Assembly: GCA_963676835.2 (NCBI GenBank)
Contig: CAXXFF010000004.1
Coordinates: 320,001-384,000, forward strand
Direction: 5' to 3'
Length of the DNA: 64,000 nt
Origin: Marispirochaeta sp.
GTDB lineage: Bacteria > Spirochaetota > Spirochaetia > JC444 > Marispirochaetaceae
Both the position numbers and the translations under genes were made by a program. Below the pieces are notes generated by a model, which made no database searches, was not told the DNA's origin, and saw only the letters and a list, made by a program, of their open reading frames with translations. Shown piece after piece: positions 4,180 to 32,392 of this stretch. How positions within the stretch are numbered: the stretch's first letter is position 1; every line of letters begins with the position of its first letter.

Positions 4180-4369
4180 AACAAGGGCACTTCTAAAAAC
4201 GTGGTATTTTTACCATAGCCTAGGAGGATAGATTTTATAGCGCCCACAAACTCTTGTGGTAACAAGAGTTGAGGACCGCGGGAAATCTTGACGACGCAGG
4301 ATATGGAGAAAAGAGTAGTTTTTAGAGGTGCCCACAAACCAGAATAAGGTTAGTATATCGAGGCGTTAG

Positions 4370-15194: not shown

Positions 15195-15388
15195 GGTCGC
15201 AAAACGACCGGGGTCTGTTACATGAGATGATATTCACAATTAACTGTTCATTCTTATACAGACCCCAACAAGTTTACCAGGCATCATTTAAACAAGTCCC
15301 ATCCGCCCAGGCCTTGCATCTTTCCACATAGAAAAACCGATATCAGCATTCTATCTTAAATTTTTTAATGGCAAAGCTATTGTTGCAG

Positions 15389-15411
15389 AGTTATACTGCA
15401 GAAGTATAACT
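15389..15411. promoter_or_regulatory. Perfect inverted repeat upstream of the candidate attI
   Basis: AGTTATACT-GCAGA-AGTATAACT. Confidence 0.45.
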
Positions 15412-15509
15412 GTAACTTTCCGACTGTTAATACTACATACTAAGGTAAATTATTATGCATAGCGAAGGTTTTTATTTCGTTTTTACCATTCCCAATAACT
15501 TATATATAA

Positions 15510-15534
15510 AAGTGGTTAAGTGATTATGTTATAT
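15510..15534 (+). mobile_element. Candidate integron attI site (crossover G|TT at 15528/15529)
   Basis: GTTATATACAA (15528-15538) is the exact reverse complement of TTGTATATAAC (16373-16383), the R'' end of cassette 1; upstream sequence is not attC-like; extra GTTRRRY (GTTAAGT) at 15515. Confidence 0.6.
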
Positions 15535-15741
15535 ACAAAATTTTTCGAAATATGAAGTATTTTCAATCGAGTTTTCTACTGGTGAAAAAAATTGAAGTTT
15601 ATCCTCATTGAAGATATAATTGGATTGAAGTGTGGTTTTCAGACGAATGAAGAACTTCAGGAGATGCAGAACAAACATAGGCTGTTTATAAATTAACCAT
15701 ATATATGATTAATTGGATAATTTCGGGTAAATGGGAATAAT

Positions 15742-16323
15742 ATGAAAAATAAATTACAAGTGTTCGGAATTATAGTGTTGTCTTCTATTATTTCACTGGG
15801 TTGTGTTACACAACAGACATCCGATGAACCTATGTATCCCGTAGAAGAATATAAAATAGAGGACGATTCTGAATGGCAATCGTTAAAAGAAGATGAAAAA
15901 GTCTCGCCGAATGACACAGACGGATTTCCCGAAAATATCTTTGAAGTGGCGTTCGGGAAACTGCTTAATAGTAAGGAAACAACGTTATATTTCTATAAGT
16001 TTAGAAACACTGATGTCGACTTGCGTCAGAACCAGGAAGATGCCGCCCGACATATGTTAAATCTCAAAGAAATTGGCTTTTCTGAAACTATTGATCCCAA
16101 GGCAGCTGATTATATTTTAGAGGCCTCTTTTAAAAGAACTGTTTCAGAAATAAGATCAGGCACCCATAGTATTACAGATAGAGAAATAACTATCAACTAC
16201 AGATTGATCGAAACAGGTGATAGTGTAGTCGTAGCTGAAAACAGATTTTTTCTACGCTATTATATGCTATCAGTAGACTACGAAATTGTAGATGAGATTA
16301 TTGTTCAGAAGATATGGCAGTAG
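15742..16323 (+). CDS. Hypothetical lipoprotein (cassette 1)
   Basis: Lipobox ISLGC; followed by attC1. Confidence 0.75.
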   Translation: MKNKLQVFGIIVLSSIISLGCVTQQTSDEPMYPVEEYKIEDDSEWQSLKEDEKVSPNDTDGFPENIFEVAFGKLLNSKETTLYFYKFRNTDVDLRQNQEDAARHMLNLKEIGFSETIDPKAADYILEASFKRTVSEIRSGTHSITDREITINYRLIETGDSVVVAENRFFLRYYMLSVDYEIVDEIIVQKIWQ

Positions 16324-16376
16324 TTGAGTAGAATTAAAACGATCAAAACCAAATACATACTTGTTAGATAAATTGT

Positions 16377-16547
16377 ATATAACAAGCAATTGGAGCAGAC
16401 ATGGCTACTGTCATGGTTTGTGCAGTAACGGAAACCAGGTGAATGTAAGTTTCAGGTGATTCCGAGCTGAATCCGTAGTAAAATGGGATAGAGTTACAGC
16501 ACAAACCACGCCAGCTTAACGCCACGCAGCTCAATTGGATGTTATAT
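16377..16547 (+). repeat. attC site 1 (171 bp)
   Basis: R'' ATATAAC, L'' CAATTGGAGC pairs with L' GCTCAATTG leaving one extra G, inner stem TGGTTTGTGC/GCACAAACCA, R' GTTATAT. Confidence 0.93.
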
Positions 16548-16606
16548 TTACTTTCAGAAAATTTAGTAGTAAAATATCGGTTGTAAGGTAATAAGGGTTA
16601 GCCGAT

Positions 16607-17536
16607 ATGGATGAAAAGCTTCTATCGAGCATAGAAGGCAAGAAACGAGAACTTGATAAACATAGGCCGCTGAATGCTTCAATCTCGCGGAAATTGCATG
16701 AACAACTCGTATTAGAATGGACATACAACTCAAACGCAATTGAAGGTAATACTCTCAGCCTGCAGGAAACAGAAGTCGTCCTGAATCAAGGCATCACAAT
16801 AGGTGGAAAATCGGTTAATGAACACCTTGAGGCGATTAACCATAAAGAAGGCATTGAATTCCTCAATACAGTTATTCAGAAGAAAGAAGATCTTAGTGAC
16901 AGCATAATCCGTGAATGTCATAGGCTTATTCTCAAAGGAATTGATGATTTAGAAGCTGGTGCGTATAGAAGAACCAATGTAAGAATAGTAGGAGCGCGAT
17001 TGATACCACCTCAGGCAATAAAAGTAAAGCCTAAAATGGAAGAACTCATCGCCTGGTATTATGAAAACCGATATTCAATGCCAATTGCAGTACTTGCAGC
17101 TCAGTTTCATTATAAATTTGTATGCATACATCCCTTTATTGATGGTAATGGAAGGGTAGCACGTCTTCTTATGAACCTTATTCTAATGGCAAATGGTTAT
17201 CCACCAGCAGTAATCTTGAAAGTGGACAGGAAAAAGTATTATCGGGTACTAAATGAAGCGAATACAGGAAATGAGGAATCGTTAGAAGATTTCATAGGAA
17301 AATCCATTGAACGAACTCTTATCATATATCTGAACAGTATTCAGCCGAATACTGATGAAAAACAAGGCTTCATCAATCTTAAAGAAGCGTCACAGTATTG
17401 TGATTACTCCCAGGAATACCTATCTCTTCTCGCGCGAAAAGGTAAACTCTCGGCAATTAAGCTAAATAAGGAATGGGTTACAACCCGTGAAGCGCTTGAA
17501 GAATATGTAAATAGCCAGAATAAGGTGAATAATTGA
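16607..17536 (+). CDS. Fic family protein with C-terminal HTH (cassette 2)
   Basis: HPFIDGNGRVAR Fic motif; SNAIEGN inhibitory motif; excisionase-like HTH at the C-terminus. Confidence 0.92.
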   Translation: MDEKLLSSIEGKKRELDKHRPLNASISRKLHEQLVLEWTYNSNAIEGNTLSLQETEVVLNQGITIGGKSVNEHLEAINHKEGIEFLNTVIQKKEDLSDSIIRECHRLILKGIDDLEAGAYRRTNVRIVGARLIPPQAIKVKPKMEELIAWYYENRYSMPIAVLAAQFHYKFVCIHPFIDGNGRVARLLMNLILMANGYPPAVILKVDRKKYYRVLNEANTGNEESLEDFIGKSIERTLIIYLNSIQPNTDEKQGFINLKEASQYCDYSQEYLSLLARKGKLSAIKLNKEWVTTREALEEYVNSQNKVNN

Positions 17537-17541
17537 AAAAA

Positions 17542-17714
17542 ATATAACCAGCAATTGGAGCAGACATGGCTACTGTCATGGTTTGTGCTAATAAAGATAA
17601 GTCTTGAAATGCTCTTTCCAGGTGATTCCGAGCTGAAATCGTAGTAGAATGTATGAGTAGTTGCGGCACAAACCACGCCAGCTTAACGCCACGCAGCTCA
17701 ATTGGATGTTAAAT
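17542..17714 (+). repeat. attC site 2 (173 bp)
   Basis: ATATAAC...GTTAAAT; same arms as attC1. Confidence 0.93.
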
Positions 17715-18033
17715 CGCCATTGAGAAAATGTATCAGGCCCTGCGCTGAAAACGCATGGAAATGTGGGTCACATGACAGGATAATCGAAATGGTTGGATCT
17801 ACTTGGATTAACAATTTATCGGGGAAGAATAGGGCCCTCCGATTGTTTATGGGCAAGATCCGGGTAAAGGTATAGAGATTTCAGGTGATATCCAGGTAAT
17901 GCACCCGATGAATAAACAAAATGAAAGTTCTGCAAGGGCCATCTTTTTGAATGGTCGTGCGCTTCGAAATCTAAAAGTCATCCAACCTATGGCTTCGTTT
18001 TCCAAGTGCGTTATGTAAGGCATCACAATGTCG
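17709..18033 (+). other. ORF-less gene cassette, copy A (cassette 3)
   Basis: 325 bp between attC2 and attC3, no conserved ORF; about 91% identical to 19155-19479. Confidence 0.85.
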
Positions 18034-18208
18034 GTTTAACCAGCAATTGGAGCAGTCATGCCTATTGTCATGCTTTATGCAATGGAAGGTTGAAAGTGAA
18101 GGGCAAAGAATCCATGTGATTCCGAGCGAAAGTAATTGTATAATACTGGTTATAAAACAGCATAAAGCACGCCAACTTGACGGCATGCAGCTCAATTGGA
18201 TGTTATAT
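18034..18208 (+). repeat. attC site 3 (175 bp)
   Basis: GTTTAAC...GTTATAT; inner stem TGCTTTATGC/GCATAAAGCA, compensatory relative to attC1. Confidence 0.92.
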
Positions 18209-18459
18209 AGGAATCGGGGGTACAGATCAGATTCTGGGTGCCAATTGCACCATTACGCAGTATAAAAAATTACTGTAGGTAAAGGGTTCAGTTGAATTAC
18301 AGAGAAGAAGATTATCGAAACTTAAAAAAGGATTAGATTAACGTTATTGATTATAGTTTTCACTCCTAAACAAACTGAAGAAATGATTTATAAAACTATA
18401 CTATATTTTCAGAATGTTAGTTTCAAACCAGAAATAGAAAATCTAAGGAGAGGTAAAAA

Positions 18460-18972
18460 ATGGAAATCAACATAAATATTGTTGTCGTTCTCGTCGTAAT
18501 ATTTGTAATTGCCTTTGCAGGAAAAATTAAAAAGAATTCAAATAAGGAAGAAGAAAATAACGGAGACAATTCTGAGAAAGCTATTGAAGATGAATTTATC
18601 GATTATAATGATAAATTTACGCAGGCTAATAGAAGCGAACCTGTTATGCCGTTAGTCAGGACCTTTTCTATTGAAGATAAAATGATGCTACGGTCAATGC
18701 TGGATGCTGAGAAAATACCAACATATGTAAAGGGTGAACATGTCAATAACATGCTTCCTGGTATTGGTGTGCAAGGTTATTCAGATAGCATTATCTACGT
18801 ATATAGTAACGACTATGAGGATGCAGAAAGTATTGTCCATGATTATGTTCAAAATTTAATTGATTCGATTGAACCGGAAAGGGAATCAGGATTTGTTGAT
18901 ATTGTAGCTGTAGTAAATACAGCACCAACAAAATATAATCAATACATTCCAGAAATTATAAAAAAGAAATAA
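18460..18972 (+). CDS. Membrane-anchored DUF2007-like (PII-like) protein (cassette 4)
   Basis: N-terminal TM; LRSMLDAEKIPTYV...IYVYSNDYEDA pattern; AAGGAGAGG RBS. Confidence 0.7.
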   Translation: MEININIVVVLVVIFVIAFAGKIKKNSNKEEENNGDNSEKAIEDEFIDYNDKFTQANRSEPVMPLVRTFSIEDKMMLRSMLDAEKIPTYVKGEHVNNMLPGIGVQGYSDSIIYVYSNDYEDAESIVHDYVQNLIDSIEPERESGFVDIVAVVNTAPTKYNQYIPEIIKKK

Positions 18973-18989
18973 ATTAAACGCGAGATTCT

Positions 18990-19160
18990 ATATAACCAGC
19001 AATTGGAGCAGTCATGGCTACTGTCATGGTTTGTGCAGTAACGGAAACCAAATGAATGATTATTTCAGGTGATTCCGAGCTGATATTGTAGTAGAATGGA
19101 ACTGAGTTGCAGCACAAACCACGCCAGCTTAACGCCATGCAGCTCAATTGGATGTTAAAT
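18990..19160 (+). repeat. attC site 4 (171 bp)
   Basis: ATATAAC...GTTAAAT; closest to attC1. Confidence 0.93.
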
Positions 19161-19479
19161 CGCCATTGAGAAAATGTATCAGGCCCTGCGCTGAAAACGC
19201 ATGGAAATGTGTGTCACATGACAGGAAAATCGAAATGGTTGGATCTACTTGGATTAACGATTTACCGGGAAAGAATAGGGCCATCCGATTGTCTATGGGC
19301 AAGATCTGGGTAAAGTTATAGAGATTTCAGGCGAGTTCCTGGTAATGCACCCGATGAATAAATAAAATGATAGTTCTGCAAGGGCCATCCTTTTGAATGG
19401 TCGTGCGCTCCGAACTCAGAAAGTCATGTAACCAGTGGCATCGTTTTCTAAGTGCTGGATGTAAGGCATCACAATGTCG
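19155..19479 (+). other. ORF-less gene cassette, copy B (cassette 5)
   Basis: 325 bp, colinear with copy A without indels. Confidence 0.85.
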
Positions 19480-19660
19480 GTTTAACCAGCAATTGGAGCA
19501 GACAAAACCTATTGTCATGGTTTTTGCTAACGGTTTTATCCTGGTGAATTGGAATAAGTCGCTTTCCAGAGTAAAAACTGTTGTATAATGCTGTAATCAG
19601 GCAGCAAAAACGCATGCCAATGCCTTCGGCACGGCTTTGCAGCTCAATTGGATGTTCTAC
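19480..19660 (+). repeat. attC site 5 (181 bp)
   Basis: GTTTAAC CAGCAATTGGAGC...GCTCAATTGGAT GTTCTAC; inner stem GTTTTTGCT/AGCAAAAAC. Confidence 0.9.
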
Positions 19661-19948
19661 TGACTGGCGGTATGTTCATTTATCTTCCATGTAAAAATCA
19701 GTACCTGAAAATGCAAAATTAATAATATTTCCTCCGGAAGGGAGAGTAAATATTGGGCTTAAAACCCCAGTGGGAGAATAGGTATTGGGAATGAATGGTG
19801 GTATATTGAAAACAATCGAATTTTCATGAAAATATTTTAAAATAGATGTGAAGTTTACTTATGGTATGAGCCATATTTAAGGTTGAGTAATATTCTATAG
19901 GATAAATCAAAATATTGTTGTAATTTTATCAATAAAGGATAAAAACGA

Positions 19949-20857
19949 ATGAGAACGTACATGATTTTTTTAATAACTCTTGCTATTCCTCTTAGTCTTT
20001 TTTCAATCGATTTTATAGGGAAAACATATGAGGATCACATTTGGATGGGATTCGATGGAGAAAGAAATACAAGTGGAAGTCAAAGAATATCATTTGGTGA
20101 TGATGAGGTCCTATACGAAATCGATGATAATAGTCATAAGGTAAAATCTGTCGTTTATGACGAATATAAATATAAGTATAAAGTTATAGATAATTGTGGT
20201 TTGACATTTATTGTTCTTGATAGCAATACGAAATGGCTGGCTATATATAATGAAGATATCCTAGCCCTCTATGATGATAATGATTACCCCTTTTTTGTTG
20301 GCTTTAATACAGAAAAAAATTATAGCATTTATGGAATTGGTATTTTCCCAAGGAATAGTGGGGATTATACTGCTTCTTCTTTTTTAGTTGAAGAAATAAA
20401 CGGTAAATTAATTAAGTATTCTCCTGATGATATTACAAATCTTTCCAATCCTACTCCTTGGGTAGAAGGAGTCGATGGAAATGGAATAGGAGAGAAATTA
20501 TACTATCGTCTAAAAGATGAAAGTTACATGAAATTAGTACAAGTATCAGGGGAGTTAGATTATTATTCAAAGTGGACATTTTTTATATCTAATGGGTATG
20601 TTTCATACAGTAGACCAGATTTATATAAAGGAAATAATAGAATTAAAGAAATAAGATTTACTCAACCTGAAACAAATGAAACGTATATCACTAACATTCT
20701 TGATACACCAAATATTCAAAAAATAAGTTTTCCTGATGATGCAAAAATGGATGGAAATATAATTATTATGGAGATCACGGATATATACGAAGGTTCAAAA
20801 TATCAAGATACATGCGTAAGTTTTATAATACAATATGAAGAGAAAGAAAGAATTTAG
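19949..20857 (+). CDS. Secreted protein with C-terminal NADase-type glycan-binding (discoidin-like) domain (cassette 6)
   Basis: Signal peptide; PWVEGVDGNGIGE, NGY...NNRIKE, YEGSKYQDTCVS pattern. Confidence 0.7.
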   Translation: MRTYMIFLITLAIPLSLFSIDFIGKTYEDHIWMGFDGERNTSGSQRISFGDDEVLYEIDDNSHKVKSVVYDEYKYKYKVIDNCGLTFIVLDSNTKWLAIYNEDILALYDDNDYPFFVGFNTEKNYSIYGIGIFPRNSGDYTASSFLVEEINGKLIKYSPDDITNLSNPTPWVEGVDGNGIGEKLYYRLKDESYMKLVQVSGELDYYSKWTFFISNGYVSYSRPDLYKGNNRIKEIRFTQPETNETYITNILDTPNIQKISFPDDAKMDGNIIIMEITDIYEGSKYQDTCVSFIIQYEEKERI

Positions 20858-21031
20858 AATCTATTTCAAAAATACTGAGAATTTGCTTTCTGAAGGGAGA
20901 ATAGTTCTGAACACTTAGATAAACATCTGATGGTGGTATACATTTGGGGGTCCTTTCTATTTTACTAAGTGATTAATAATACTTCAAAGAGACCCGAAGA
21001 AATTAGCGGAGATGTTTATGTAATTATGGCA

Positions 21032-21140
21032 GTAGAACAAGCTTTTGAAACTGTCAAATCTTTTTGTCATGTAAAATGCGATACGCATTTTTCACGCCAA
21101 ACCCTTCGGGACAGATTTGCAGCTTAAAAGGGCGTTATAT
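21032..21140 (+). repeat. attC site 6 (109 bp, divergent)
   Basis: R'' GTAGAAC complements the cassette-6 start GTTCTAC; arms CTTTTGAAAC/GCTTAAAAG; AAAATGCG/CGCATTTT hairpin; R' GTTATAT. Confidence 0.85.
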
Positions 21141-21381
21141 AGTCCCAAATTTATAATACAAAAATAGTCATAAAATGTTGCATGCTGGTTATTTATTGAG
21201 CAGTTCATAAAATATTCGCAATCCAGAGAATGGAGTTGTGGAAGCAAAATTGGTGCTGCAAAACGCCTTTAAAGAAGTGAAAAAACTCCGAATGTTGCTT
21301 GTAAGTTAGAATACCGCTAAAAGCACCTATAATAAAGATATTCGATGTTCATCAGTCGTGGCTAAGCTCGAATGAAAAAAG

Positions 21382-21410
21382 TTGACGTTGTATATACATC
21401 TGTGTATTAT
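21382..21410 (+). promoter_or_regulatory. TA promoter with palindromic operator
   Basis: TTGACG-17 nt-TATTAT; TGTATATACA palindrome at 21389-21398; ATG begins 6 nt after the -10. Confidence 0.75.
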
Positions 21411-21415
21411 TACCT

Positions 21416-21682
21416 ATGAATTCAATCATCTGGGACAAAGAAAAGAATGAAAAACTCATTCTTGAGAGAAATGTTTCTTTTAATGACATAAGTCAGATGA
21501 TAATGGATGGAAACTATCTGGATATTATTGAGAATCCAGTACGTGAAGGACAGCTGTATTTTGTGATGAAAATCGATGATTATACGTGGATTGTCCCGTT
21601 CATCGTAAATAAAGACGAAAACATTGTTCTAAAAACTGCCTTTCCAAGTCGCAAATACCATAATAAATACACGGGGGACTGA
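21416..21682 (+). CDS. BrnT/RelE-fold type II toxin (cassette 7)
   Basis: WDKEKNEKLILERNVSF...LKTAFPSRK; 88 aa, toxin-first order. Confidence 0.85.
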   Translation: MNSIIWDKEKNEKLILERNVSFNDISQMIMDGNYLDIIENPVREGQLYFVMKIDDYTWIVPFIVNKDENIVLKTAFPSRKYHNKYTGD

Positions 21683-21683
21683 T

Positions 21684-21995
21684 ATGAATCCAAAATATAA
21701 ACTTACAGACGAAGAAAAACAGATTGAGAATAAAATTGAATCCTATCAATCTGTTACAGGCGAAAAGAGAAAAAGGATTGAGAAAATAATATCTTCCGCA
21801 AAAAAGAAAAATGCCATAAGCCTGCGTATTGCTAATTATGATCTCGAAAAACTAAAAGAGAAGGCTGAAGAGGAAGGTTTACCCTATCAGACTTTAATTA
21901 CCACAGTACTACATAAGTACATTACGAATCAGTTATATGAAAAAGATGAAATTTTAAAATCAATACGATTGTTGAAAGAGGAACAAGCTATTTAA
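21684..21995 (+). CDS. CopG/BrnA-type RHH antitoxin
   Basis: ISLRI...LKEKAEEEGLPYQTLI; stop codon overlaps R'' of attC7. Confidence 0.85.
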   Translation: MNPKYKLTDEEKQIENKIESYQSVTGEKRKRIEKIISSAKKKNAISLRIANYDLEKLKEKAEEEGLPYQTLITTVLHKYITNQLYEKDEILKSIRLLKEEQAI

Positions 21996-22090
21996 CCAGC
22001 AATTGGAGCAGTCAAACCTACTGTCACGATTCTTGCATGCGCAAGAATACGCGCCAGCTCAACGGTTTGTAGCTCAATTGGATGTTATGA
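21990..22090 (+). repeat. attC site 7 (101 bp, short form of the family)
   Basis: ATTTAAC CAGCAATTGGAGC...ATTCTTGC-ATGC-GCAAGAAT...GCTCAATTGGAT GTTATGA. Confidence 0.92.
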
Positions 22091-22194
22091 TGTAAAGAGT
22101 ACATTCCACCCACATCGTTTATAAAACTCTTGGCACATCCTTTATGTACACCATAAACCCGAGCCCATAGATTATCCGCCGACCCTTGCTGCAC

Positions 22195-22677
22195 TTACTG
22201 CCTGAGTTTGTCCAGCCTGCCGCTCAGGGCCTGCGCAATTTCCCCGGCCGCTGTGAGCTGATCATTGCTGAGGGCATCGATGAATATTTCCTGGACGTCG
22301 GAAAGATGCGGCCGAACAGCCTGTTTGAAGGTCTTTGACCCGATTGCCGTAATCTGCACCTCGGCACCCCGCCCGTCCACAGGACATTCCTGCCGATTAA
22401 CGAGTCCTCTCTTTTCCATTCGGCGCAGGTGATGAGACAGCCTGCTGCGGTCCCAGTTTATGAGAGACGCCAGTTCTGAAGATCTGATCCTGTTTCCCTC
22501 CGCCTCGCTGAGAGCAAGAAGCACACTGTAATCCGGGGCTGAAAGCCCCGACTGAGTTTGCAGCCGGTTGAAGAGTTCAGTCCTGAGGGCTTCGGTTGTT
22601 TCCAGGAAACAGCGCCAGATTGCCAGATCCTCTTCAGAGGGCAGTGAAAGGCGTTTATTCCTTATTTTTTCACTCAT
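22195..22677 (-). CDS. MarR family regulator
   Basis: wHTH RSRLSHHLRRMEKRGLV...DGRG; AGGTGGAG RBS before ATG 22677. Confidence 0.9.
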   Translation of the reverse strand: MSEKIRNKRLSLPSEEDLAIWRCFLETTEALRTELFNRLQTQSGLSAPDYSVLLALSEAEGNRIRSSELASLINWDRSRLSHHLRRMEKRGLVNRQECPVDGRGAEVQITAIGSKTFKQAVRPHLSDVQEIFIDALSNDQLTAAGEIAQALSGRLDKLRQ

Positions 22678-22692
22678 TTTCTCCACCTATTG

Positions 22693-22732
22693 TTGACGCG
22701 TCAATTATATTTTCATATTTTTGAGATGTCAA
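22693..22732. promoter_or_regulatory. Two MarR operator palindromes (TTGA-N4-TCAA)
   Basis: TTGACGCGTCAA 22693-22704 and TTGAGATGTCAA 22721-22732 in the divergent intergenic region. Confidence 0.7.
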
Positions 22733-22746
22733 TCAGGAGTTTGGAT

Positions 22747-23796
22747 TTGAGAAAGAAGATAGACGCAGACAACATTGAATTTGGAATTGATACCTTTGGA
22801 GACCTCCCGGAGAATAACAACGGAAAGCTGGTCTCACATGCCGGGGCAATCCGCCAGGTAGTTGACGAAGCGGTGCTTGCGGACGAAGTGGGTATTGACG
22901 TTGTTGCCATCGGCGAACATCACCGCCCGGATTATTCAATATCCTCTCCGGAAACAGTTCTTGCGGGAATCGCAACTAAAACTTCCAGGATACGTTTGGC
23001 ATCAGGGGTTACAGTACTCAGCTCGGACGATCCGGTCCGGGTATTCCAGCGCTTTGCCACGGTGGATGCATTGTCCAACGGCCGGGCAGAGGTGATTCTG
23101 GGACGGGGTTCATTTACCGAATCATTTCCCTTATTCGGATACGACCTGTCAGATTATGAAATTCTTTTCGAGGAAAAAATAGAGCTATTCGCAGAACTGC
23201 TGAAAGAAAAACCTGTAACCTGGAAAGGCACAACCAGAGCCGCACTGGAGAAGGCAGATGTATTCCCCAAGACAGAATCAGGCCGCTTGAACACCTGGGT
23301 CGGCGTCGGTGGTTCGCCTCAGTCAGTTATACGAACTGCAAAATACGGTTTTCCTTTGATGCTTGCCATCATCGGCGGGCCCGCAGATCGGTTTGCGCCA
23401 TACGTAGACCTGTATTACCGGGCAGTCGAAGAGTTCGGCAAACCCGCACAGATGGTGGGAATGCACTCTCCGGGATTTGTTGCTGACACGGATGAAGAGG
23501 CAAAGGAAATTGTCTACCCGAGGTACAAGGAAAACCGGGACAGAATAGGGTCAACCAGGGGATGGCCGCCTGTTACCCGGGCGAGCTTCGAATCTGAAGT
23601 TGCACAGGGTTCGCTCTATGTGGGTGCTCCTGAAACAGTTGCAAAGAAAATGGCTGCTTCTATTAAAACCCTGGGTGTGGATCGATTTGATCTCATCTAC
23701 ACTACCGGTTCCCAGCCCGGACCTGCCCGGATGCATAATATCGAACTCTATGGTACCAGGGTGATTCCCATGGTTCGGGATTTACTTGCGGAGTAA
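22747..23796 (+). CDS. LLM-class flavin-dependent oxidoreductase
   Basis: GEHHRPD, VLSSDDPVRV, GRGSFTES; AGGAG RBS before TTG 22747. Confidence 0.9.
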   Translation: MRKKIDADNIEFGIDTFGDLPENNNGKLVSHAGAIRQVVDEAVLADEVGIDVVAIGEHHRPDYSISSPETVLAGIATKTSRIRLASGVTVLSSDDPVRVFQRFATVDALSNGRAEVILGRGSFTESFPLFGYDLSDYEILFEEKIELFAELLKEKPVTWKGTTRAALEKADVFPKTESGRLNTWVGVGGSPQSVIRTAKYGFPLMLAIIGGPADRFAPYVDLYYRAVEEFGKPAQMVGMHSPGFVADTDEEAKEIVYPRYKENRDRIGSTRGWPPVTRASFESEVAQGSLYVGAPETVAKKMAASIKTLGVDRFDLIYTTGSQPGPARMHNIELYGTRVIPMVRDLLAE

Positions 23797-23803
23797 AAAA
23801 GAT

Positions 23804-24442
23804 ATGAATCAGTCAGGAATTGAAACTATCGGTATACTCGGAGCGGGAAAGGTGGGTACCGTACTGGCCAGGCTGGCAGTAGCCGCCGGGTACCGCACCC
23901 TCATCTCCGGTTCCGGAGATCCCGCAGGTATCGCACTGATAACAGAAGTGCTGGCTCCCGGCGCACAACCTGGACATCCGGATGACGTAGCACGGGAGTC
24001 CGATGCGGTTATCCTTGCCCTCCCCCTTGGCAAATATCAGCAAATCAACAAAGAGGCATTAGCCGGAAAGCTGGTTATTGATGCCATGAATTACTGGTGG
24101 GAAACCGACGGTCCCCGGCCAGACCTGACGGAAACCGGCAAGACATCCACAGAGATAATTCAGGATTACCTCTCAGAATCCTATGTGGTGAAGGCGTTTA
24201 ACCATATGGGCTATCATGACCTGGAATCTGAAGCGAGACAGTCCGGAGAAGTAGAGCGCAAGGCGATAGCTGTTTCCGGCAACCAAAAGGAATATACGGA
24301 GGCTGCGGCTGAAATTGTGGACAGGCTTGGTTTTGATCCGCTGTTTATCGGAAATCTCGATATGAGCAGGAGCCTTGAACCCGGCGGCCCCGCCTTCGGT
24401 GCAAACTTGCAGGCGAAAGAGCTTGAAAGCGTACTAGGATAA
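23804..24442 (+). CDS. NADPH-dependent F420 reductase-family oxidoreductase
   Basis: GILGAGKVG, DAMNY, VVKAFNHMG. Confidence 0.88.
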   Translation: MNQSGIETIGILGAGKVGTVLARLAVAAGYRTLISGSGDPAGIALITEVLAPGAQPGHPDDVARESDAVILALPLGKYQQINKEALAGKLVIDAMNYWWETDGPRPDLTETGKTSTEIIQDYLSESYVVKAFNHMGYHDLESEARQSGEVERKAIAVSGNQKEYTEAAAEIVDRLGFDPLFIGNLDMSRSLEPGGPAFGANLQAKELESVLG

Positions 24443-24677
24443 ACCGGATACTCTTTGGAGGCATATGTTGAGTTGACTCAGCAGGAAAATCCAGCATCTC
24501 AAACACATTCATATTTTCTTTGAAGTAGTCCGAGTAGTGCGTATAAAAGAAAACTCTTCTTTTGGACAGTTCATAATGGACTTTCTTCAATGAGAAGGCC
24601 AGGCGTGTAGCATATTGCATCAATTTCGCCTGACTATGCCTATCGAGAATACGCACACTTTTATCAATGCTGAAACC
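24440..24677 (-). pseudogene. IS91-family (Y2) transposase remnant
   Basis: Minus-strand translation GFSIDKSVRI...QYATRLAFSLKK...LDFPAESTQHMPPK resembles the Y2 transposase GFSVD-xSVRI / YxxRPP / LEFLARLxQHIP segment; no start codon, truncated. Confidence 0.65.
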
Positions 24678-24718
24678 TTTGATGAAGATGACAACTACAG
24701 CTCAGCAAATTCCATTCA

Positions 24719-25342
24719 TTATGAAGTAAAACGCTTTAAAGCGCAGTCAAACAGGTATTGACTGATACTGTGATCAACTCCGTCTTCTGTATCCAAACTC
24801 ACTATAGCACCCAGGCCTTTCAGCTTTTCATAGGCATCAATGGCATGTTGAACCGGTATAACGGAATCCGCTTTTCCATGAAATAAATGAATAGCCGTTT
24901 GCTTGGGGGCTTCATTGGGCAGCTGGGCATAGCGACCGGAGAACCCCAGTACTTTTGCGGCGATCCCATCATGTGCTTTAACCGCTTCAAGGGACATAAT
25001 GGTTCCTTGAGAAAAGCCAAGCAGCACGGTTTGCTTCTCCGAAAAACCAAATTGTTTTTGCAGCGTTTTAATCATATCTATAAATTGGGGTAAGGCAGAA
25101 GCGATGCGTTCGGATCGATTTTCCTCAGTCACATTTGTTATAGAAAACCATTGTTTACCGCCGAAACCGCCATCAAAGTCATCGTATCCATCTACAACCA
25201 CGCAATGAGCCGCAGGATAAGCTTGATTCAGTGCTTTTCCGATTGGCGCCATATTCTCTTTATAGCTGCCTACACCATGAGCAATAATAACCAGGTATTC
25301 CGCTTTGTCTTGCGGCAGATACTCGATGTAATTTACCGACAT
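24719..25342 (-). CDS. Phospholipase/carboxylesterase (YpfH-like)
   Basis: HGVG, GFSQG, HGKAD, DH catalytic triad. Confidence 0.88.
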   Translation of the reverse strand: MSVNYIEYLPQDKAEYLVIIAHGVGSYKENMAPIGKALNQAYPAAHCVVVDGYDDFDGGFGGKQWFSITNVTEENRSERIASALPQFIDMIKTLQKQFGFSEKQTVLLGFSQGTIMSLEAVKAHDGIAAKVLGFSGRYAQLPNEAPKQTAIHLFHGKADSVIPVQHAIDAYEKLKGLGAIVSLDTEDGVDHSISQYLFDCALKRFTS

Positions 25343-25765
25343 TTATTCCCCCTCGGAAATGCGCTGTATGCAATATTTAATGCAAATAAGATACTTCCAA
25401 ATGCTAATGGAAGATAGGAAAAGTCATATTATCTGTGAAAGAAATTAAAGACGAAAATGGCTGTTTACGAAAAAGTGGTATAGAATATGATCTTCACCCA
25501 CAATCCGGATTAGAACATTGAGATTTTTCTGTCTATGAAACCCGGAATTTATTACTGATGCAGGTGTTTTTCCTTGATCTATTGGAAATCCGGTTTTTAA
25601 TCTAAATCAAGGCAGTTATGCAAATGGAATTAATTTCCACGTTGAAACAAGATTATTATTAGCAGGGATGATATCTCAAACAGTTCAAACTGCTGATAGA
25701 GTATATCCTGGATTGGGAAGTTAATAAAACAAAACAAATTTTGAAGTTGTTACAGAAGTTTGATA

Positions 25766-25863
25766 AAATAACAAACGCCCGAAACAGTCAGTTCTATCAT
25801 CATGCCTTTTGCTAAGCAAAAATCACACCCATACACAGGCTGCAGCTGAAGCGGGCATTACTT
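25766..25863 (+). repeat. Degenerate attC
   Basis: AAATAAC...CAGTCA...TTTTGCT-A-AGCAAAA hairpin...TGCAGCTGAAGCGGGC ATTA; R' GTT appears mutated to ATT. Confidence 0.6.
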
Positions 25864-25885
25864 AACAACAGGTACAAGGATAGAT

Positions 25886-26521
25886 ATGGAATATAAAATA
25901 CGCTTAGAAAAACCGGACGACTATTCGAAGGTCGAAGAAATGACTCGTGAAGCTTTCTGGAATTTATACACTCCAGGTTGTGATGAACATTACTTATGTC
26001 ATATTATGCGGAGCCATAATGATTTTATTAAAGAATTAGATTATGTTGCTGAGATTGATGGAAACATTATTGGATCCATAATGTATTCTAATTCTGTTCT
26101 AATTGGTGAGAATAAAGAAGAAATTGGGATAGTCTCATTTGGCCCATTATGTGTTCACCCTGATTATCAACGGCAAGGTGTAGGGACTGCACTAATAAAT
26201 AAAACAAAAGAGATAGTCATACAAAAAAATATCCCAGCTATTGTTATATATGGTGATCCTCATAATTATTGTAAACATGGGTTTAAAAACGGAATTGATT
26301 ATTCAGTCAGCGACATGACTGGAAAGCAACCATTGGGCTTGCTGGTTTTAGAACTTGAATCAGATTTTTTTGGAAGCCAAAAATGGAAAATAAAGCAAAG
26401 TGATGTTTTTTCCTTCGACCACGCCAAGGTCATAGAGTTTGATAAAAGGTTCAAGAAGAAAGAAAAACAGACACAATATAGTCAAGAAATATTCAGCATG
26501 CAGATAAGGGCTTTTTTATAA
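25886..26521 (+). CDS. GNAT N-acetyltransferase (YhbS-like)
   Basis: VHPDYQRQGVGTAL, GDPHNYCKHGF. Confidence 0.88.
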   Translation: MEYKIRLEKPDDYSKVEEMTREAFWNLYTPGCDEHYLCHIMRSHNDFIKELDYVAEIDGNIIGSIMYSNSVLIGENKEEIGIVSFGPLCVHPDYQRQGVGTALINKTKEIVIQKNIPAIVIYGDPHNYCKHGFKNGIDYSVSDMTGKQPLGLLVLELESDFFGSQKWKIKQSDVFSFDHAKVIEFDKRFKKKEKQTQYSQEIFSMQIRAFL

Positions 26522-26630
26522 ACAAATATCTGCCCATAACAGTTTGAGCAGATATTACTTAGCAAAGAAACGAACTATTAGCGGTTTTCCAGAATTGACC
26601 GCTGCATAATTCAAATGTTAAGATTAAGAC

Positions 26631-27041
26631 ATGAAAGTTACCACCCCGATAAGTGATTTTTTAAAAGTTTCCAGAAACAACAACGGAAATCTGGCATTGC
26701 CTGCCATAGACGAAACACGAAACCATATAGGCACTGCTCATGCGGGAGCGCAATTTGTCTTAGCCGAAATGGCAAGCGGAGCCTGTTTAAAGGAATCCTT
26801 TCCGGAGTATGCAGATAGGGTTATAGCGGTAGTCCGACGTGCTGAAGTTAAATATTCAAAACCCGGTGAGACTGAATTGGAAGCCACTGCCTCTATTACA
26901 GGTGATCCTTCAGATATCTTAAAGCACCTCACCTCTTCCGGCCGAGGATTAGCAGTAGTGGATGTACAATTATTTGACAATAAAGGTCAGATAACATTTA
27001 GAGGAAAGTTCACCTGGTTTTTGGAGTTAAGAAAAAGCTGA
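26631..27041 (+). CDS. PaaI/YiiD-like hotdog thioesterase
   Basis: NHIGTAHAGAQFVLAE. Confidence 0.8.
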   Translation: MKVTTPISDFLKVSRNNNGNLALPAIDETRNHIGTAHAGAQFVLAEMASGACLKESFPEYADRVIAVVRRAEVKYSKPGETELEATASITGDPSDILKHLTSSGRGLAVVDVQLFDNKGQITFRGKFTWFLELRKS

Positions 27042-27055
27042 TATGAAAGATAGCC

Positions 27056-27505
27056 ATGGCCATTGATTTCCAATCAGTGCTTCACTGGGCAAAGTTAAAC
27101 GCTCCTTTATCTTTCTCACATATTCATGGAGAACTTCACTGGATAAAAGTGCGCGAAAACGGGATTAAGCTGGCAGAAGATACACCTGGTGCAGATGCAG
27201 TACTTATTGAGCTGTTTGGTTTTCTGCATGATTCTCAGCGGGAAAATGAGAATAAAGACCCCGATCATGGGAAACGTGCTGCAAGACATATTATAAAAAT
27301 TAGAAACAATCTTTTGAAAGATCTTACAGACGAACAGTTTGAAAAACTGCAGTATGCTATAAGCAATCACAACAGCCCAATGATAGAAAAGGATCCAACT
27401 GTTGGGTGCTGTTGGGATGCAGATAGATTAGACATTTCCCGTGTTGGAATCCCGGTGCAAAAAAGCTTTTTATCAACTGAAGCAGGTAAGAGGCGGGTTC
27501 GCTGA
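27056..27505 (+). CDS. HD-domain protein
   Basis: IHGELHW, LHDS, DPDHG, WDADRLD. Confidence 0.85.
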   Translation: MAIDFQSVLHWAKLNAPLSFSHIHGELHWIKVRENGIKLAEDTPGADAVLIELFGFLHDSQRENENKDPDHGKRAARHIIKIRNNLLKDLTDEQFEKLQYAISNHNSPMIEKDPTVGCCWDADRLDISRVGIPVQKSFLSTEAGKRRVR

Positions 27506-27569
27506 TACATACTGTGCAATGCTGGAAAAATAAGTAATCGATTGTATCTGTTATCCTGGATAGTCAGCA

Positions 27570-28004
27570 ATGAAGGTAAAAATGGAAGAATATTGGAATC
27601 CGATGGTTCCTGAATTATCCGTAACAGATTTTGCTAAATCTCTCGAGTTTTATCGCAAGACACTCGGGTTCAAACTCAGGGATCGAAGATCAAATCCTGA
27701 ATTCTCATATTTAGAAATTGAAAAAGTCCAGATAATGATTGAACAAATTCACAAGACAGCCTGGATCACTGATCCACTTGAATATCCACTCGGGAGAGGG
27801 GTGAACTTCCAGATTGAACTGTCAGAAATAGCCCCTGTGTTTAACCGTCTAAAAGAAGCTGGCATTAAGCTGTACCGTAATCTTGAAGAAAACTGGTATA
27901 ATGCAGGCAATAACCTAACTGGACAATTAGAATTTATTGTACAAGATCCGGATGGTTATTTGCTGAGGTTTACCCAGTATTTAGGTGAAAAAACAGTTTC
28001 GTAA
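27570..28004 (+). CDS. VOC/glyoxalase/bleomycin-resistance family protein
   Basis: PELSVTDF..SLEFY; QDPDGYLLRF. Confidence 0.88.
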   Translation: MKVKMEEYWNPMVPELSVTDFAKSLEFYRKTLGFKLRDRRSNPEFSYLEIEKVQIMIEQIHKTAWITDPLEYPLGRGVNFQIELSEIAPVFNRLKEAGIKLYRNLEENWYNAGNNLTGQLEFIVQDPDGYLLRFTQYLGEKTVS

Positions 28005-28100
28005 ACACCATGCGATCATATATAGGCCATAATCCCTTACATACCAACATAGAACCGGGACAGATAAGCATGCAACGGCATCCATTGTTGAGGGGACTTT

Positions 28101-28910
28101 ATGGAATATAAAATTATTTCAGCATGGAACGGCACGGAAGGAGACTTCCTGCAATTAAAGAAAGGCGACATAGTTCAATTAGGCAATAAATCCGAAACAA
28201 CCAAATGGAAGAACTGGCAGGAATGCAGCCTCGATAATATAACAGCATGGGTTCCCATTCAAATAATAAATGCCATATCTGAAGTTAAAGGTGAGATTAG
28301 AGAAGATTATTCTGCATTTGAGTTACAAACCGATGTTGGAGATACCTTCAAATGTATCAAAGAAATGAACGGCTGGTTATTTGGATATATTATTTCCCGG
28401 GAATCAACTAAAGGCTGGATACCTGAAGAGACAGCTCAATTGACAGAGACTGCGGTTACGCCAGTCAACAATACTGATATTAAAGATTTGGTCCATTTTA
28501 TAGAAAAGTATAAAATCGAGAACAACAGAAAAATCACACAGGAATTATTGGAAAAATCAGAATCTGCAATCAGGGAAGTAATTACAGCTGAACATTCTTA
28601 CGCCTATAAATATTTAAATAGCGAGGGGAGATTCTCGGGGTATATGATATTTCATATCTTAAATTTCCCCATGATTAATGGAAGAGAAGCCTATATATCT
28701 GAACTGTTCATTGATAAAGAGCACCGGGGAAAAGGTATTGGTAAAGATTTTCTGAAAACTGCTGAATGTATTGCACGCAGGAAACAATGTACCAGGATAA
28801 TGCTGAATAATCCAAAAGAAAACGAAAGTTATAACCGCGGGTTTTATGCAAAGAATGGATATACAGAAAGGACCAATTTTGCTAATTTTGTAAAGGATTT
28901 GAGCAAGTGA
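28101..28910 (+). CDS. Tandem SH3-like domains fused to a GNAT acetyltransferase
   Basis: LQLKKGDIV..W..AWVP and DY..ELQ..GD..NGW..GWIP; C-terminal HRGKGIG...FYAKNGY. Confidence 0.75.
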   Translation: MEYKIISAWNGTEGDFLQLKKGDIVQLGNKSETTKWKNWQECSLDNITAWVPIQIINAISEVKGEIREDYSAFELQTDVGDTFKCIKEMNGWLFGYIISRESTKGWIPEETAQLTETAVTPVNNTDIKDLVHFIEKYKIENNRKITQELLEKSESAIREVITAEHSYAYKYLNSEGRFSGYMIFHILNFPMINGREAYISELFIDKEHRGKGIGKDFLKTAECIARRKQCTRIMLNNPKENESYNRGFYAKNGYTERTNFANFVKDLSK

Positions 28911-28941
28911 GTACTGTGTATATACAGAGGAGAATGAAATA

Positions 28942-29238
28942 ATGGAAAAGAAATTCATCGTAGTAGCAGAGTTCTATCTCAAACCGGGTGCAATGGATAA
29001 ATTCCTGGAACTGGCACTGGAAGATTCAGCAAAATCCGTGGCCAATGAAGAGGGATGTCTTGGTTTTGATGTTCTGGTTCCTCAAAACAAGAAAGATACG
29101 GTTATATTGTTTGAGACCTATACAAGTAAGGATGCCTTCGAGGTTCATAAAACCATGCCTCATTTCAAACCCTTTGTTGATGGAATTCCTCCGCTGCTTT
29201 CAAAAGAGCGGACAATTCAGTTTCTTTCGGATTATTAA
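28942..29238 (+). CDS. ABM-family putative quinol monooxygenase
   Basis: EEGCLGFDV, FETY, H...PHF. Confidence 0.85.
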   Translation: MEKKFIVVAEFYLKPGAMDKFLELALEDSAKSVANEEGCLGFDVLVPQNKKDTVILFETYTSKDAFEVHKTMPHFKPFVDGIPPLLSKERTIQFLSDY

Positions 29239-29401
29239 GAATCCTGTTCTAAATCAAACCCGCAGCCAGATATAATACACCTTCCCGTCAAAGGAATAAT
29301 AAAACCTTTGAAGGGAAGGCTGTGCCTGGAATAGAAACAAAGAAGTAAGGTGGAATATGGAAATTTTCTGTACGTATTTCATCTTTTCCGGTAAAATCTC
29401 A

Positions 29402-29483
29402 ACATAACAACCGCATACTGCTGTTAATGTATTTGTCACGGTTTTCGCCTCAGGCTCTCCTGCAGCTGATACGGATGTTACGT
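29402..29483 (+). repeat. attC-like site, second family, partly decayed (82 bp)
   Basis: ACATAAC AACCGCATACTGCTG...TGTCACG...TGCAGCTGATACGGAT GTTACGT. Confidence 0.7.
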
Positions 29484-29512
29484 AGAATTTATTTTTCTTA
29501 AACGGGGATATT

Positions 29513-32095
29513 GTGAAACGAATTGGTTATTTGATTTTTGCCTTAACTGTTTTTATTGCTTCCTGTACAACAAACGACAGCAGATTATCCGGCCAGAGAA
29601 TCAATTCCAGGGATGAGATCCCTTCCCGCATTATTTTCAATACCATCGATATACAAGAGAGGTCTGTCGGCGGAAAACGTCAAACCTGGTTCATTCTGGG
29701 ATCTGACACATACTACGGTGTGAAGATGTATATCCCGGAACAGGATCTGAACAGTAACAACCCTTTAAATTTCAATGCCGGCCGGAAAGAAGTCTACTTG
29801 GACATGGATGGTGTTATTAAAGAATGGGTGACTTTGCGGGGCAACTACAGGACTGATCAGAACAACATGTTTTCCGGCGGAGGCCTTTATGAAACAGCAG
29901 ACGGTCGCTTCGGTAAAGAATGCGGTTTCGCGGTTAATCTGATTAAGGCAGGATTGAGAAGTGCCCCCGGGGATAAACAGGAGCCTGCTGAAAAAGAGCG
30001 GCTCTTTGAAAGAATTTTTGAAGTGGATGCACAGCCCCTGCCGGTACTGTATAAAATGGACAGCCAGCCGAACTTTATGGGCTACGGTTCCGACGGCGAC
30101 CTGCTGATAACAACCTTTGATCAGTATATTGCCGTATCCCGGGACCGGGGAGAAACCTGGACCCATACCCTGCTGCCGAACTCGAAACTGCCGGACGGCT
30201 CATTCCGCTTTAACCAGTACGCCCGGATGGTCACGAATAAAATTACCATTGACGGTAAGCAAATCCTCATTACCGGCGCTATCGATGCCTACAGTTCGGA
30301 TAGGGGAAAAACATGGATTTTTCACAGAAGAGATGAAAATTCAGTCTTCGGAAAGATCCCTTTCGGTACTGAAGGAGAATTCCGTGCTGATGTTTTGTTT
30401 GAAGGAAAAATCCTGTTTGACGGTAGAGAGCATGCAGCAGTCTGGGATCCATCAGGGACTACATCCCCTACCCTCATCACACCCCCGTTTACAGGAAGAT
30501 ACCAGTATTTCTCCGGAGACTATATTTCCTTTTTTGCAGACGATTATACGTCTGCGGCTTTCTATAATATCGAAAATGGAGAGTGGCAGATTATCCGGCA
30601 GGGAAGCCATGGTCTAAAAGGCGATATCCGGATAGCCGTAAGAAATAATGACACCCTTATTGTCGGAGGGGCCGCGGGATTATTTCTGTCCCGGGACAGG
30701 GGCGAAACATTCAGACCCATCGATAACGGCATCGATTTCCCCGCAGGATGGCATCCCTGGGTGGTAAGCCGTCTGGAAGGAGATAGGATTGTCCTTAAAC
30801 TGCAAAGGTCACGGCCGCCTCTGCAATATATATGGCATGTTTCCGATATAGAAGAATTCAGGGAGAGACTTGGGTATGTCAGTATCAGCAATGACGGCGG
30901 AGAAACATGGGAGCACAAAACATACAATGTTGATAATGACCTTGATTTTTTCAAACAAATGAAAAGCTCCGATCCAGACGGAAGAACCCAGCTGATTGCC
31001 TACATGCCGGCGGAATTCGAGATACAGGACCAACACGATAAAACAATCCTGTACCGGCCAGCTCCCCTGGACAGGGATTATCCCTGGGAAAGGAGCCTGG
31101 ACGGGGGAAAATCCTGGCAGCGTTACGATGAAGAGTGGACCGGCCTGGATATAGAGTCGGACAACCGGCGCCATCTCGAAATATCCACAGACTACGGGAA
31201 AAGCTGGCATGAAGCTCCTTTCCATTTTACGAACGGCAGCAGATCGCAGACCGGACTCGAGCCGGGGGATATACCGGTTATGGAAGATCTGATATTTGCG
31301 GCAAAGTATTCGGACGGCAATTTTCAGAAAGACGGGGAAGCCGGGAAATACCTGGATCTTCTGAACCGGCTGTTCGATAAATTCAACCGGCGCTTTATAC
31401 CCGATCATAACATTGATATCCGCGGCGACCGTATAATCCTGAGAGTAAATGATGAACTCTATTTAAGTGAGAATTTCGGCCGAAGCTTTTCAAGGTTGGA
31501 GAATCTGCCATTTTCTAGCTTACAGGTTGAGAATCCGCAGTTTTTCAGAGACACTATCATAATTAATAAAAATTACAGATCCTACTATGCAGCGAATGCC
31601 ACCGGTACAGGCTGGAAATATATCGAAGAAAATAACGATAGTAAAAATGAAGCTGGACTGGACTTCACTCCCCACTCCAGCCGGTTTGCATCAAGTGAAG
31701 ATTATTTCTACGCCATATTTTCACAGAGAAGTTCCAATGGATTCCTCTTCTATCCATACAGAAGGAACAAGGTTGCCTTTGGGGAGGATAATTCCTGGGA
31801 AGCAATTGCCGAACCGGTTCGGGTTTTTATGGATCGTCCCACGTTTACCGCAGCCGGGGATAATATGGCAATCCTGGAGTATAATTCCACCATGCAGAAA
31901 ATTCAGAACAATACGCTTCTGCTGCATCTGAGTCATGACGGGGGGAAAACCTGGAAAGACTATAATACTTATGCCATGATCGAAGAGAGCAGGGTCCTTG
32001 AATATATAGAAAAGGGAGACTTTGAACTGCTGCCCGTCAGCAACGGGGTCATATTGGGAACCCCCTCGGGGATTTACCGGCTTGTAATTGAATAA
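29513..32095 (+). CDS. Large lipoprotein with BNR/Asp-box repeats (sialidase-like beta-propeller)
   Basis: Lipobox FIASC; repeated SxDxGxTW motifs (SRDRGETW, SSDRGKTW, SNDGGETW, SLDGGKSW, SHDGGKTW). Confidence 0.85.
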   Translation: MKRIGYLIFALTVFIASCTTNDSRLSGQRINSRDEIPSRIIFNTIDIQERSVGGKRQTWFILGSDTYYGVKMYIPEQDLNSNNPLNFNAGRKEVYLDMDGVIKEWVTLRGNYRTDQNNMFSGGGLYETADGRFGKECGFAVNLIKAGLRSAPGDKQEPAEKERLFERIFEVDAQPLPVLYKMDSQPNFMGYGSDGDLLITTFDQYIAVSRDRGETWTHTLLPNSKLPDGSFRFNQYARMVTNKITIDGKQILITGAIDAYSSDRGKTWIFHRRDENSVFGKIPFGTEGEFRADVLFEGKILFDGREHAAVWDPSGTTSPTLITPPFTGRYQYFSGDYISFFADDYTSAAFYNIENGEWQIIRQGSHGLKGDIRIAVRNNDTLIVGGAAGLFLSRDRGETFRPIDNGIDFPAGWHPWVVSRLEGDRIVLKLQRSRPPLQYIWHVSDIEEFRERLGYVSISNDGGETWEHKTYNVDNDLDFFKQMKSSDPDGRTQLIAYMPAEFEIQDQHDKTILYRPAPLDRDYPWERSLDGGKSWQRYDEEWTGLDIESDNRRHLEISTDYGKSWHEAPFHFTNGSRSQTGLEPGDIPVMEDLIFAAKYSDGNFQKDGEAGKYLDLLNRLFDKFNRRFIPDHNIDIRGDRIILRVNDELYLSENFGRSFSRLENLPFSSLQVENPQFFRDTIIINKNYRSYYAANATGTGWKYIEENNDSKNEAGLDFTPHSSRFASSEDYFYAIFSQRSSNGFLFYPYRRNKVAFGEDNSWEAIAEPVRVFMDRPTFTAAGDNMAILEYNSTMQKIQNNTLLLHLSHDGGKTWKDYNTYAMIEESRVLEYIEKGDFELLPVSNGVILGTPSGIYRLVIE

Positions 32096-32110
32096 GAGTC
32101 AATAAAAAGT

Positions 32111-32134
32111 CTACATGACAACCGCATGCGCCAG
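32111..32134 (+). repeat. attC remnant (left end only)
   Basis: CTACATGAC AACCGCAT matches the 29402 attC start and is 7/9 complementary to the cassette start GTTACGTAG. Confidence 0.55.
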
Positions 32135-32392
32135 TTTGTTCCTGGACATACATCCTGCTTTTTAATTCATCCCGGGCAGTTTTTTCACCATGGACAGAAA
32201 ACAGGTTTTACGGGGATTATAAGTACAAATATTTTTACGCTTTTACCAGTATCTTCGACAGGGAACTAATAGCAAAACATTGTAATCCCTGGTTATACCA
32301 GAGCCCCAAACCTTAGGGAAAATATAATTTATAGTATTGTTGCCATTTAATATGTACTATCAAAACTCGTTGAGATAGCATAAAATGATAGT

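Follow-up and report, generated by a model that had tools for sequence, protein, structure and literature searches.

The window analysed here, a 64,000-nt stretch of the genome of Marispirochaeta sp., contains an array of seven integron recombination sites (attC, 16377-22090), five of which are oversized and carry in their terminal loop a promoter-like -10 box that is the subject of this work. All genes and sites of the array are on the forward strand. At its head, immediately following a sugar-acid enolase gene, lies an orphan copy of an integron platform without the integrase gene intI (15390-15535), consisting of a GTTATAC-N7-GTATAAC palindrome (15390-15410), a candidate platform operator that has only one further exact copy in the genome, just upstream of intI, and an attI-like site (15500-15535) that aligns with the intI-adjoining attI regions of this genome and of genome G004. 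The first cassette gene (15742-16323; 193 aa, without a Pfam or NCBIfam family) is followed by attC1 (16377-16547, 171 bp, loop approximately 16424-16498), where a semi-conserved GTGATT block, unlike TTGACA, occupies the -35 position (16456-16461) and TAAAAT the -10 position (16479-16484). Transcription would start at approximately 16490-16492, 116 nt ahead of the ATG of a fic gene (16607-17536; 309 aa, Fic/DOC with a helix-turn-helix), homologues of which on contig C3 follow other attC loop types. Downstream are attC2 (17542-17714, 173 bp, TAGAAT at 17645-17650), a gene-less cassette of 319 bp with four copies in the genome and no conserved open reading frame or Rfam match (17715-18033), attC3 (18034-18208, 175 bp, TATAAT at 18139-18144), a gene for a 170-aa protein that is DUF2007-like, below cut-off (18460-18972), attC4 (18990-19160, 171 bp, TAGAAT at 19092-19097) and the gene-less cassette again, in a copy with 91% identity that is attached to a different attC type (19161-19479). 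The last long site, attC5 (19480-19660, 181 bp), has another arm subtype and TATAAT at 19584-19589, and precedes a gene for a 302-aa protein with an NADase-type glycan-binding (discoidin-like) domain (19949-20857). The array ends with the short, diverged and loop-free attC6 (21031-21141, 111 bp, bottom-strand fold), a BrnT-like/CopG toxin-antitoxin cassette with its own promoter, TTGACG-17-TATTAT (21382-21995), and the short attC7 (21990-22090, 101 bp). Two further degenerate attC-like sites (approximately 25766-25870 and 29404-29480) are found beyond the array near GNAT, VOC and other small genes, and there were no Rfam matches at E<=1 within 15200-33000.

No intI gene or remnant was detected beside the array (zero IntI tblastn matches on contig C4, which carries the window), and the seven sites constitute a CALIN, a cluster with two or more attC sites and without a neighbouring integrase gene as defined in PMC4889954. 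The single integron integrase of the genome (TIGR02249, 355.7 bits against a cut-off of 265; G000:C3:27840-29099, where G000 is the genome of the window and C1, C3 and C4 are contigs of it) is located on the separate contig C3, divergent from an adjoining main array of about 27 kb, with further cassettes at the start of C1. Arm patterns identified 25 complete attC sites in the genome, of which 24 are long, at 170-185 bp, and a single one measures 101 bp, and the diverged attC6 brings the number to 26. As proposed in a preliminary description of the locus, attC1-5 are oversized relative to the 101-bp attC7 and their additional nucleotides lie in the terminal loop, the long sites being the 101-bp form plus a loop of 72-79 nt. 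In 82 aligned long sites the core triplet AAC is invariant and GTT is present in at least 99%, and both are found in all five window sites. The attC hairpin is predicted to form, with a median pairing probability of 0.998 for the L box and 0.79 for the R box in 79 long sites (R box in 14 short sites, 0.72). Homologous cassettes follow different upstream attC sites, as expected from cassette shuffling and an indirect sign of reshuffling. Judged from their sequence, the five window elements are attC sites.

The preliminary description further held that the loops diverge between copies except for GTGATT and TAnAAT at an exact spacing of 17 nt. Both hexamers are present in attC1-4, starting at 16456/16479, 17622/17645, 18116/18139 and 19069/19092, and attC5 indeed keeps TATAAT at 19584, with no -35 at all where a poor one had been noted. 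The divergence of the remaining loop was overstated: the first six spacer bases, CCGAGC, are invariant in the four copies, and attC1 is 88.9% identical over its length to attC4, 83.2% to attC2 and 74.0% to attC3, so these four copies alone cannot exclude shared descent. The 17-nt spacing, exact in the window, is not general, since GTGATT stands exactly 17 nt from the -10 in 12 of the 24 complete long sites of this genome. TATAAT, TAGAAT or TAAAAT occurs at one register in all 24. A generic promoter consensus scan called none of the five window boxes and returned 25 matches in the region against 29.7 expected.

Sites of this kind are present in 7/7 genomes of the family. Using hidden Markov models of the arms only on fetched stretches, we obtained 105 complete sites, 86 long and 19 short, after excluding three more that lacked a core. 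The loops of the long sites form 10 clusters and have approximately 56% mean identity outside their last 22 nt. At the homologous register, 13-17 nt before the right arm, TAnnnT is present in 73 of the 82 unique loops, and a 10-nt window raises the number to 76, compared with 23.4 +/- 4.7% of shuffled loops and 5-44% in other windows of the loop, and it occurs in 9 of the 10 clusters. In this larger alignment the -10 is therefore conserved beyond the rest of the loop, as the preliminary description had supposed. As related and converted copies lack independence, the contrast in substitution rates outweighs these counts. With an alignment made without a promoter anchor and a maximum-likelihood tree, the -10 had a mean site rate of 0.59, compared with 2.02 for the loop; the GTGATT block stood at 0.97, the spacer at 1.73, the upstream loop at 2.51 and the arms at about 0.45. 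Among the 71 loop sites none is slower than T-12 and A-11, and the last T of GTGATT comes third. Substitutions in sigma70 -10 boxes concentrate in the middle bases. The variants found here (TATAAT, TATACT, TAGAAT and TAAAAT) differ in the same bases, with T-12, A-11 and T-7 conserved. Conservation through base pairing was considered and rejected, as the box is paired at 0.33 against a loop average of 0.41 (DNA) and 0.49 against 0.55 (RNA), without a shared partner. These data support the presence in the loop of a selectively kept -10-type element directed at the next cassette.

The upstream half of the proposed promoter did not hold up as a sigma70-like -35. Upstream of host tRNA and tmRNA genes, 47 unique regions yielded 26 promoter calls that fit TTGAY-16/18-nAnnnT, 20 of the 26 with TTGACA and 20 of the 26 with a 17-nt spacer. 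For the loops a canonical TTGACA-like -35 at 16-18 nt was rejected, the mean match to TTGACA being 2.52 of 6 and that of shuffled loops 2.52 +/- 0.10. Their -35 positions read GTGATT, TTGTTC, GTGTTT, GCGGTT or nothing recognisable. Given a -35 at chance level and an extended -10 (TGn) in 23/79 family loops, the element amounts to a strong -10 and a type-specific upstream block. GTGATT-17-TAnAAT was also discarded as a host promoter class, 13 of its 18 matches in the genome being in attC loops and 5 elsewhere. Besides RpoD, the genome has genes for three smaller sigma factors (297-337 aa) that possess region 1.2; these would be candidate readers of the box.

Several sequences in and around the loops may bear on regulation. 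One loop type has an AACAAT-N7/8-ATTGTT palindrome overlapping its -35 position. This palindrome is also found just upstream of intI and past its 3' end (G002:C34:2789-2812 and 4174-4217, G005:C1:1690060-1690096, G006:C49:1964-2005; E 0.0006-0.5), and possibly marks a shared regulator of intI and the loop promoters. A loop type with two TATACGTAT motifs (G003:C288:261366, C473:237815, C473:243019 and C493:3977; L095) has no box at the usual register and TATACT or TATGCT in mid-loop between the motifs, and may be a repressed promoter. LexA and RecA are encoded in the genome. The loop palindromes were rejected as a genome-wide SOS box, TATACGTAT lying near a gene start at 2 of 23 places and the other palindrome having no clear regulon. 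The attI regions of G002:C34 and G005:C1 carry TAGAAT or TATAAT 2 nt ahead of the GTT crossover, possibly a cassette promoter (Pc) overlapping attI.

The box extends beyond the family. In a second, held-out spirochaete family it was present in 11/11 (G075) and 10/10 (G098) long sites, the loops of which are mostly of a new type with TGnTATAAT, and scans of the collection with a left-arm pattern found it in 41/47 sites, a sample that overlaps in sequence with the family set. One of these matches (L148), in genome G401 with the unchecked bin label Polyangiaceae, is a GC-rich 148-bp site of a different architecture and has GTGATT-17-TAGAAT. In G401, some loci of which were retrieved with a loop-containing query, TAGAAT or TAGACT stands 45 nt from the end in 8/8 sites that measure 148-149 bp (null 0.05), with TGn in 7/8 and GTGATT at 17 nt in 4/8; a ninth site, of 143 bp, reads TAAAGT. 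Boxed sites of different architecture have 55-63% GC. The design was not found in the sampled relatives of G401: the motif pattern matched in 5/301 genomes of the phylum, with attC finder sites in G401 only, and in 1/251 genomes of the class. Viral contigs gave 86 motif matches, with no attC among the 80 loci listed, and the box was not found in the short sites of G226, G007 and G159. On G226:C8 (L343, L505 and L506) attC sites of 190-197 bp have AT-rich loops with GTAGAAT near the left arm and an empty usual register, and an unrelated 141-bp attC (L326:14551-14691) has TTGTTG-17-TACAAT 70 nt from its end. Long attC types of the kind analysed here also occur on contigs labelled Geopsychrobacteraceae, Mesotoga and KSB1 (L141-L147, L155, L095), reflecting either cross-phylum cassette sharing or mis-binning.

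We consider it probable that the loop carries a -10-dominated promoter, probably a regulated one, which sits at the hairpin apex and fires into the next cassette. The terminal loop would then be a promoter module of about 75 bp. In single-stranded DNA, the bottom strand is predicted to fold into the usual R-box/L-box hairpin for IntI with the module looped out; in double-stranded DNA, a sigma70-family holoenzyme would bind the near-consensus -10, often TGn-extended, and start transcription approximately 57-65 nt ahead of the recombination point, reading into the next cassette. Because the -35 is poor, the promoter would probably need an activator or one of the three smaller, group-2-like sigma factors, or else be weak. 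A start at the hairpin apex leaves out the left arm and would give an mRNA without the attC stem. The predicted RNA fold is -41 to -55 kcal/mol for a whole site and -5 to -15 for a loop-started leader, and attC stems are described in a review as hindering downstream translation (PMC8876359). A promoter would thus lie upstream of most cassettes irrespective of their location, including those in the window array, which has no integrase gene beside it. The suggestion that attC serves as a mobile promoter for the next cassette is accordingly kept as regards a -10-type element facing that cassette and given up as regards its sigma70-like -35, on sequence grounds. The related suggestion, that expression depends on the upstream neighbour and not on distance from attI, we would amend: with 24 of 26 complete genome sites long and all 24 boxed, the chief consequence would be that cassettes are transcribed regardless of their position in the array, with modulation by loop type.

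The position of downstream genes gives functional hints. Genes start within 45 nt of the site in 13 of 44 cases behind long sites, too near for a promoter of their own, and in 1 of 6 behind short ones. Leader lengths behind long and short sites did not differ (medians 69.5 and 68.5). An own TTG-type promoter in the first 100 nt was found behind 8/24 short sites, some of which are array ends, compared with 7/80 long sites (downstream sequences clustered; p=0.006; p=0.022 and 0.017 at other thresholds; stratified permutation p=0.005). This contrast was drawn post hoc, weakens to p=0.085 without the six cases that prompted it (4/18 vs 6/79), and is driven by G005 and G002, being opposite in this genome (short 0/2, long 4/18). 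Together with these limits, a number of observations weigh against a promoter in the loop. Besides the chance-level -35 and the minority of loops with TGn, none of the five window sites has TGn, and the four GTGATT loops have neither TGn nor a TTGACA-like -35. The box is lacking at the usual register in one loop type (4 of 82 loops) and is damaged or shifted in five further loops. In G226 only 1/8 sites of 190-197 bp has it, so that a long site does not imply a promoter. Within the window, the fic cassette has a promoter candidate of its own (9/12, at 16547-16575), and gene-less cassettes lie directly downstream of two of the five long sites. All loops may moreover share one ancestor and have been homogenised by conversion.

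A neutral explanation is that a single ancestral insertion spread by duplication and conversion among attC sites and the hexamer was kept by descent and AT bias. The 74-89% identity of the window copies, the recurrence of loop types in different genomes and on contigs that bear labels of other phyla, and the exchange among sites evident from homologous cassettes with different attC types all agree with it. We regard a neutral relic as improbable, since outside the box the loop changes 3-4 times faster (upstream loop 2.51, -10 0.59) and the box is kept in otherwise dissimilar loop types and in sites of 55-63% GC and different architecture. Selection could also act on recombination, with the box assisting the extrusion and folding of a long attC, either as an AT element that melts readily or is opened by polymerase or as a host-protein site. 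The available text of PMC8946536 reports that long terminal loops lower recombination by up to 4 logs under replicative conditions and that extrusion requires melting of the loop; the tightly held loop length of 72-79 nt and the chance-level -35 would fit as well. However, it is the loop itself that hinders folding, loop-free 101-bp forms share the same arms, and long sites are predicted to fold as well as short ones (R box 0.79 vs 0.72). The conservation is also specific to base and strand, beyond AT-richness, and the box never holds the AAC of the IntI core. A role in recombination therefore seems unlikely to us, if somewhat less so than a neutral relic.

Finally, the promoter may be real and its selected product another one: in the excised circle it would transcribe the gene of its own cassette, or else it would yield a short RNA, or an RNA intermediate, connected with cassette formation. 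By attC x attC geometry the loop in an excised circle is directly upstream of the cassette's own gene, and the gene-less cassettes behind two of the five window sites, along with two genes that start more than 300 nt from the predicted start, would find a place in such a scheme. Excised circles are transient, however, the lower share of cassettes with their own promoter behind long sites suggests an effect within the array, and no Rfam match marks an RNA in 15200-33000; we give this explanation the least credence, marginally below that of a neutral relic. A loop promoter that reads into the next cassette remains the reading we prefer.

The attC sites also appear to be exchanged independently of cassettes. 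The gene-less cassette has the same left-core ends in its four copies (17715-18033, 19161-19479, G000:C3:24388-24071 and 14385-14067) and three attC types, and the fic cassette likewise bears differing attC loops of its own. The attC bodies thus seem to have been swapped at or near the left arm, via homologous exchange or top-strand recombination. Elsewhere, two attC sites (G000:C3:626-726 and 15789-14386) are interrupted by insertion sequences, in one case inside the -10 box and in the other in the left arm, with loop and right arm left intact. Another family of gene-less cassettes, about 253 bp long and containing repeats of GGCCAAACGC-like units, is often in first position or in tandem (L068-L069 in G002; L048 in G005). 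From the occurrence of one cassette with different attC types, and of AACAAT-N7/8-ATTGTT in one loop type and in the flanks of intI, we tentatively raise the possibility, which we hold with considerable doubt, that attC sites are exchangeable regulatory modules, a stock of loop types moved from cassette to cassette that have the same -10 and different upstream operators or sigma dependence, so that the integron would shuffle regulation apart from genes.

In their AAC/GTT cores, bulged L boxes, bottom-strand hairpin, homogeneous repeats between cassettes and TIGR02249 integrase in the genome, these arrays resemble sedentary chromosomal integrons such as that of Vibrio cholerae with its repeats (VCRs). 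They differ in size (170-187 bp here, 57-141 bp as quoted in PMC5371416) and, from VCRs, in a mostly unpaired loop with a conserved -10 box; a VCR downstream of Plac served as a passive control in PMC11014356. The nearest printed case, as far as the accessible text of PMC2945992 goes, is Vibrio DAT722, where attC DNA contributes to a sigma70-type promoter within the array that drives the next cassette, with about 40-fold more transcript downstream. There attC provides no more than the -35, the -10 belonging to a single cassette, whereas here the -10 and the predicted start are found in nearly every loop. Promoter-bearing gene-less cassettes in Treponema (PMC6557892) and Vibrionaceae (PMC11014356) are likewise mobile promoters within arrays that break the rule of distance from Pc, but they are a dedicated minority and the available text does not place their promoter in the attC loop. 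Group IIC-attC introns (PMC3001079) similarly supply a promoter to downstream cassettes by insertion at attC; they are mobile introns, in contrast to a 75-bp loop without an open reading frame inside an intact site. The Treponema integron (PMC3607928) also mixes long and short attC sites (63-68, 115 and 132 bp), which are shorter than ours and, in the text available, have no loop promoter described, and its intI is co-oriented with the array, where here it is divergent. In the literature searched, which comprised few subscription papers and no supplements, we found no description of a promoter inside attC loops. In summary, on present sequence evidence the sites are oversized attC and the box resembles a sigma70-family promoter while failing the canonical -35 test.

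In the working integron model, as put forward in the available text of PMC8946536, promoterless cassettes depend on one Pc and silent distal cassettes serve as a cheap memory, and attC is regarded as having no effect, or a mild inhibitory one, on downstream expression (PMC11511950, as far as seen in its accessible part). Natural long and short forms that share arms, and two bases that define a knockout, are at hand in this system. If the loop does act as a promoter, whole arrays, including those cut off from their platform, would become expressible, and long terminal loops that are costly to recombination efficiency would gain a function. Should attC sites in addition be exchangeable modules, the presence of GTGATT-17-TAGAAT in a Polyangiaceae-labelled genome would make this an old or recurrent design across phyla.

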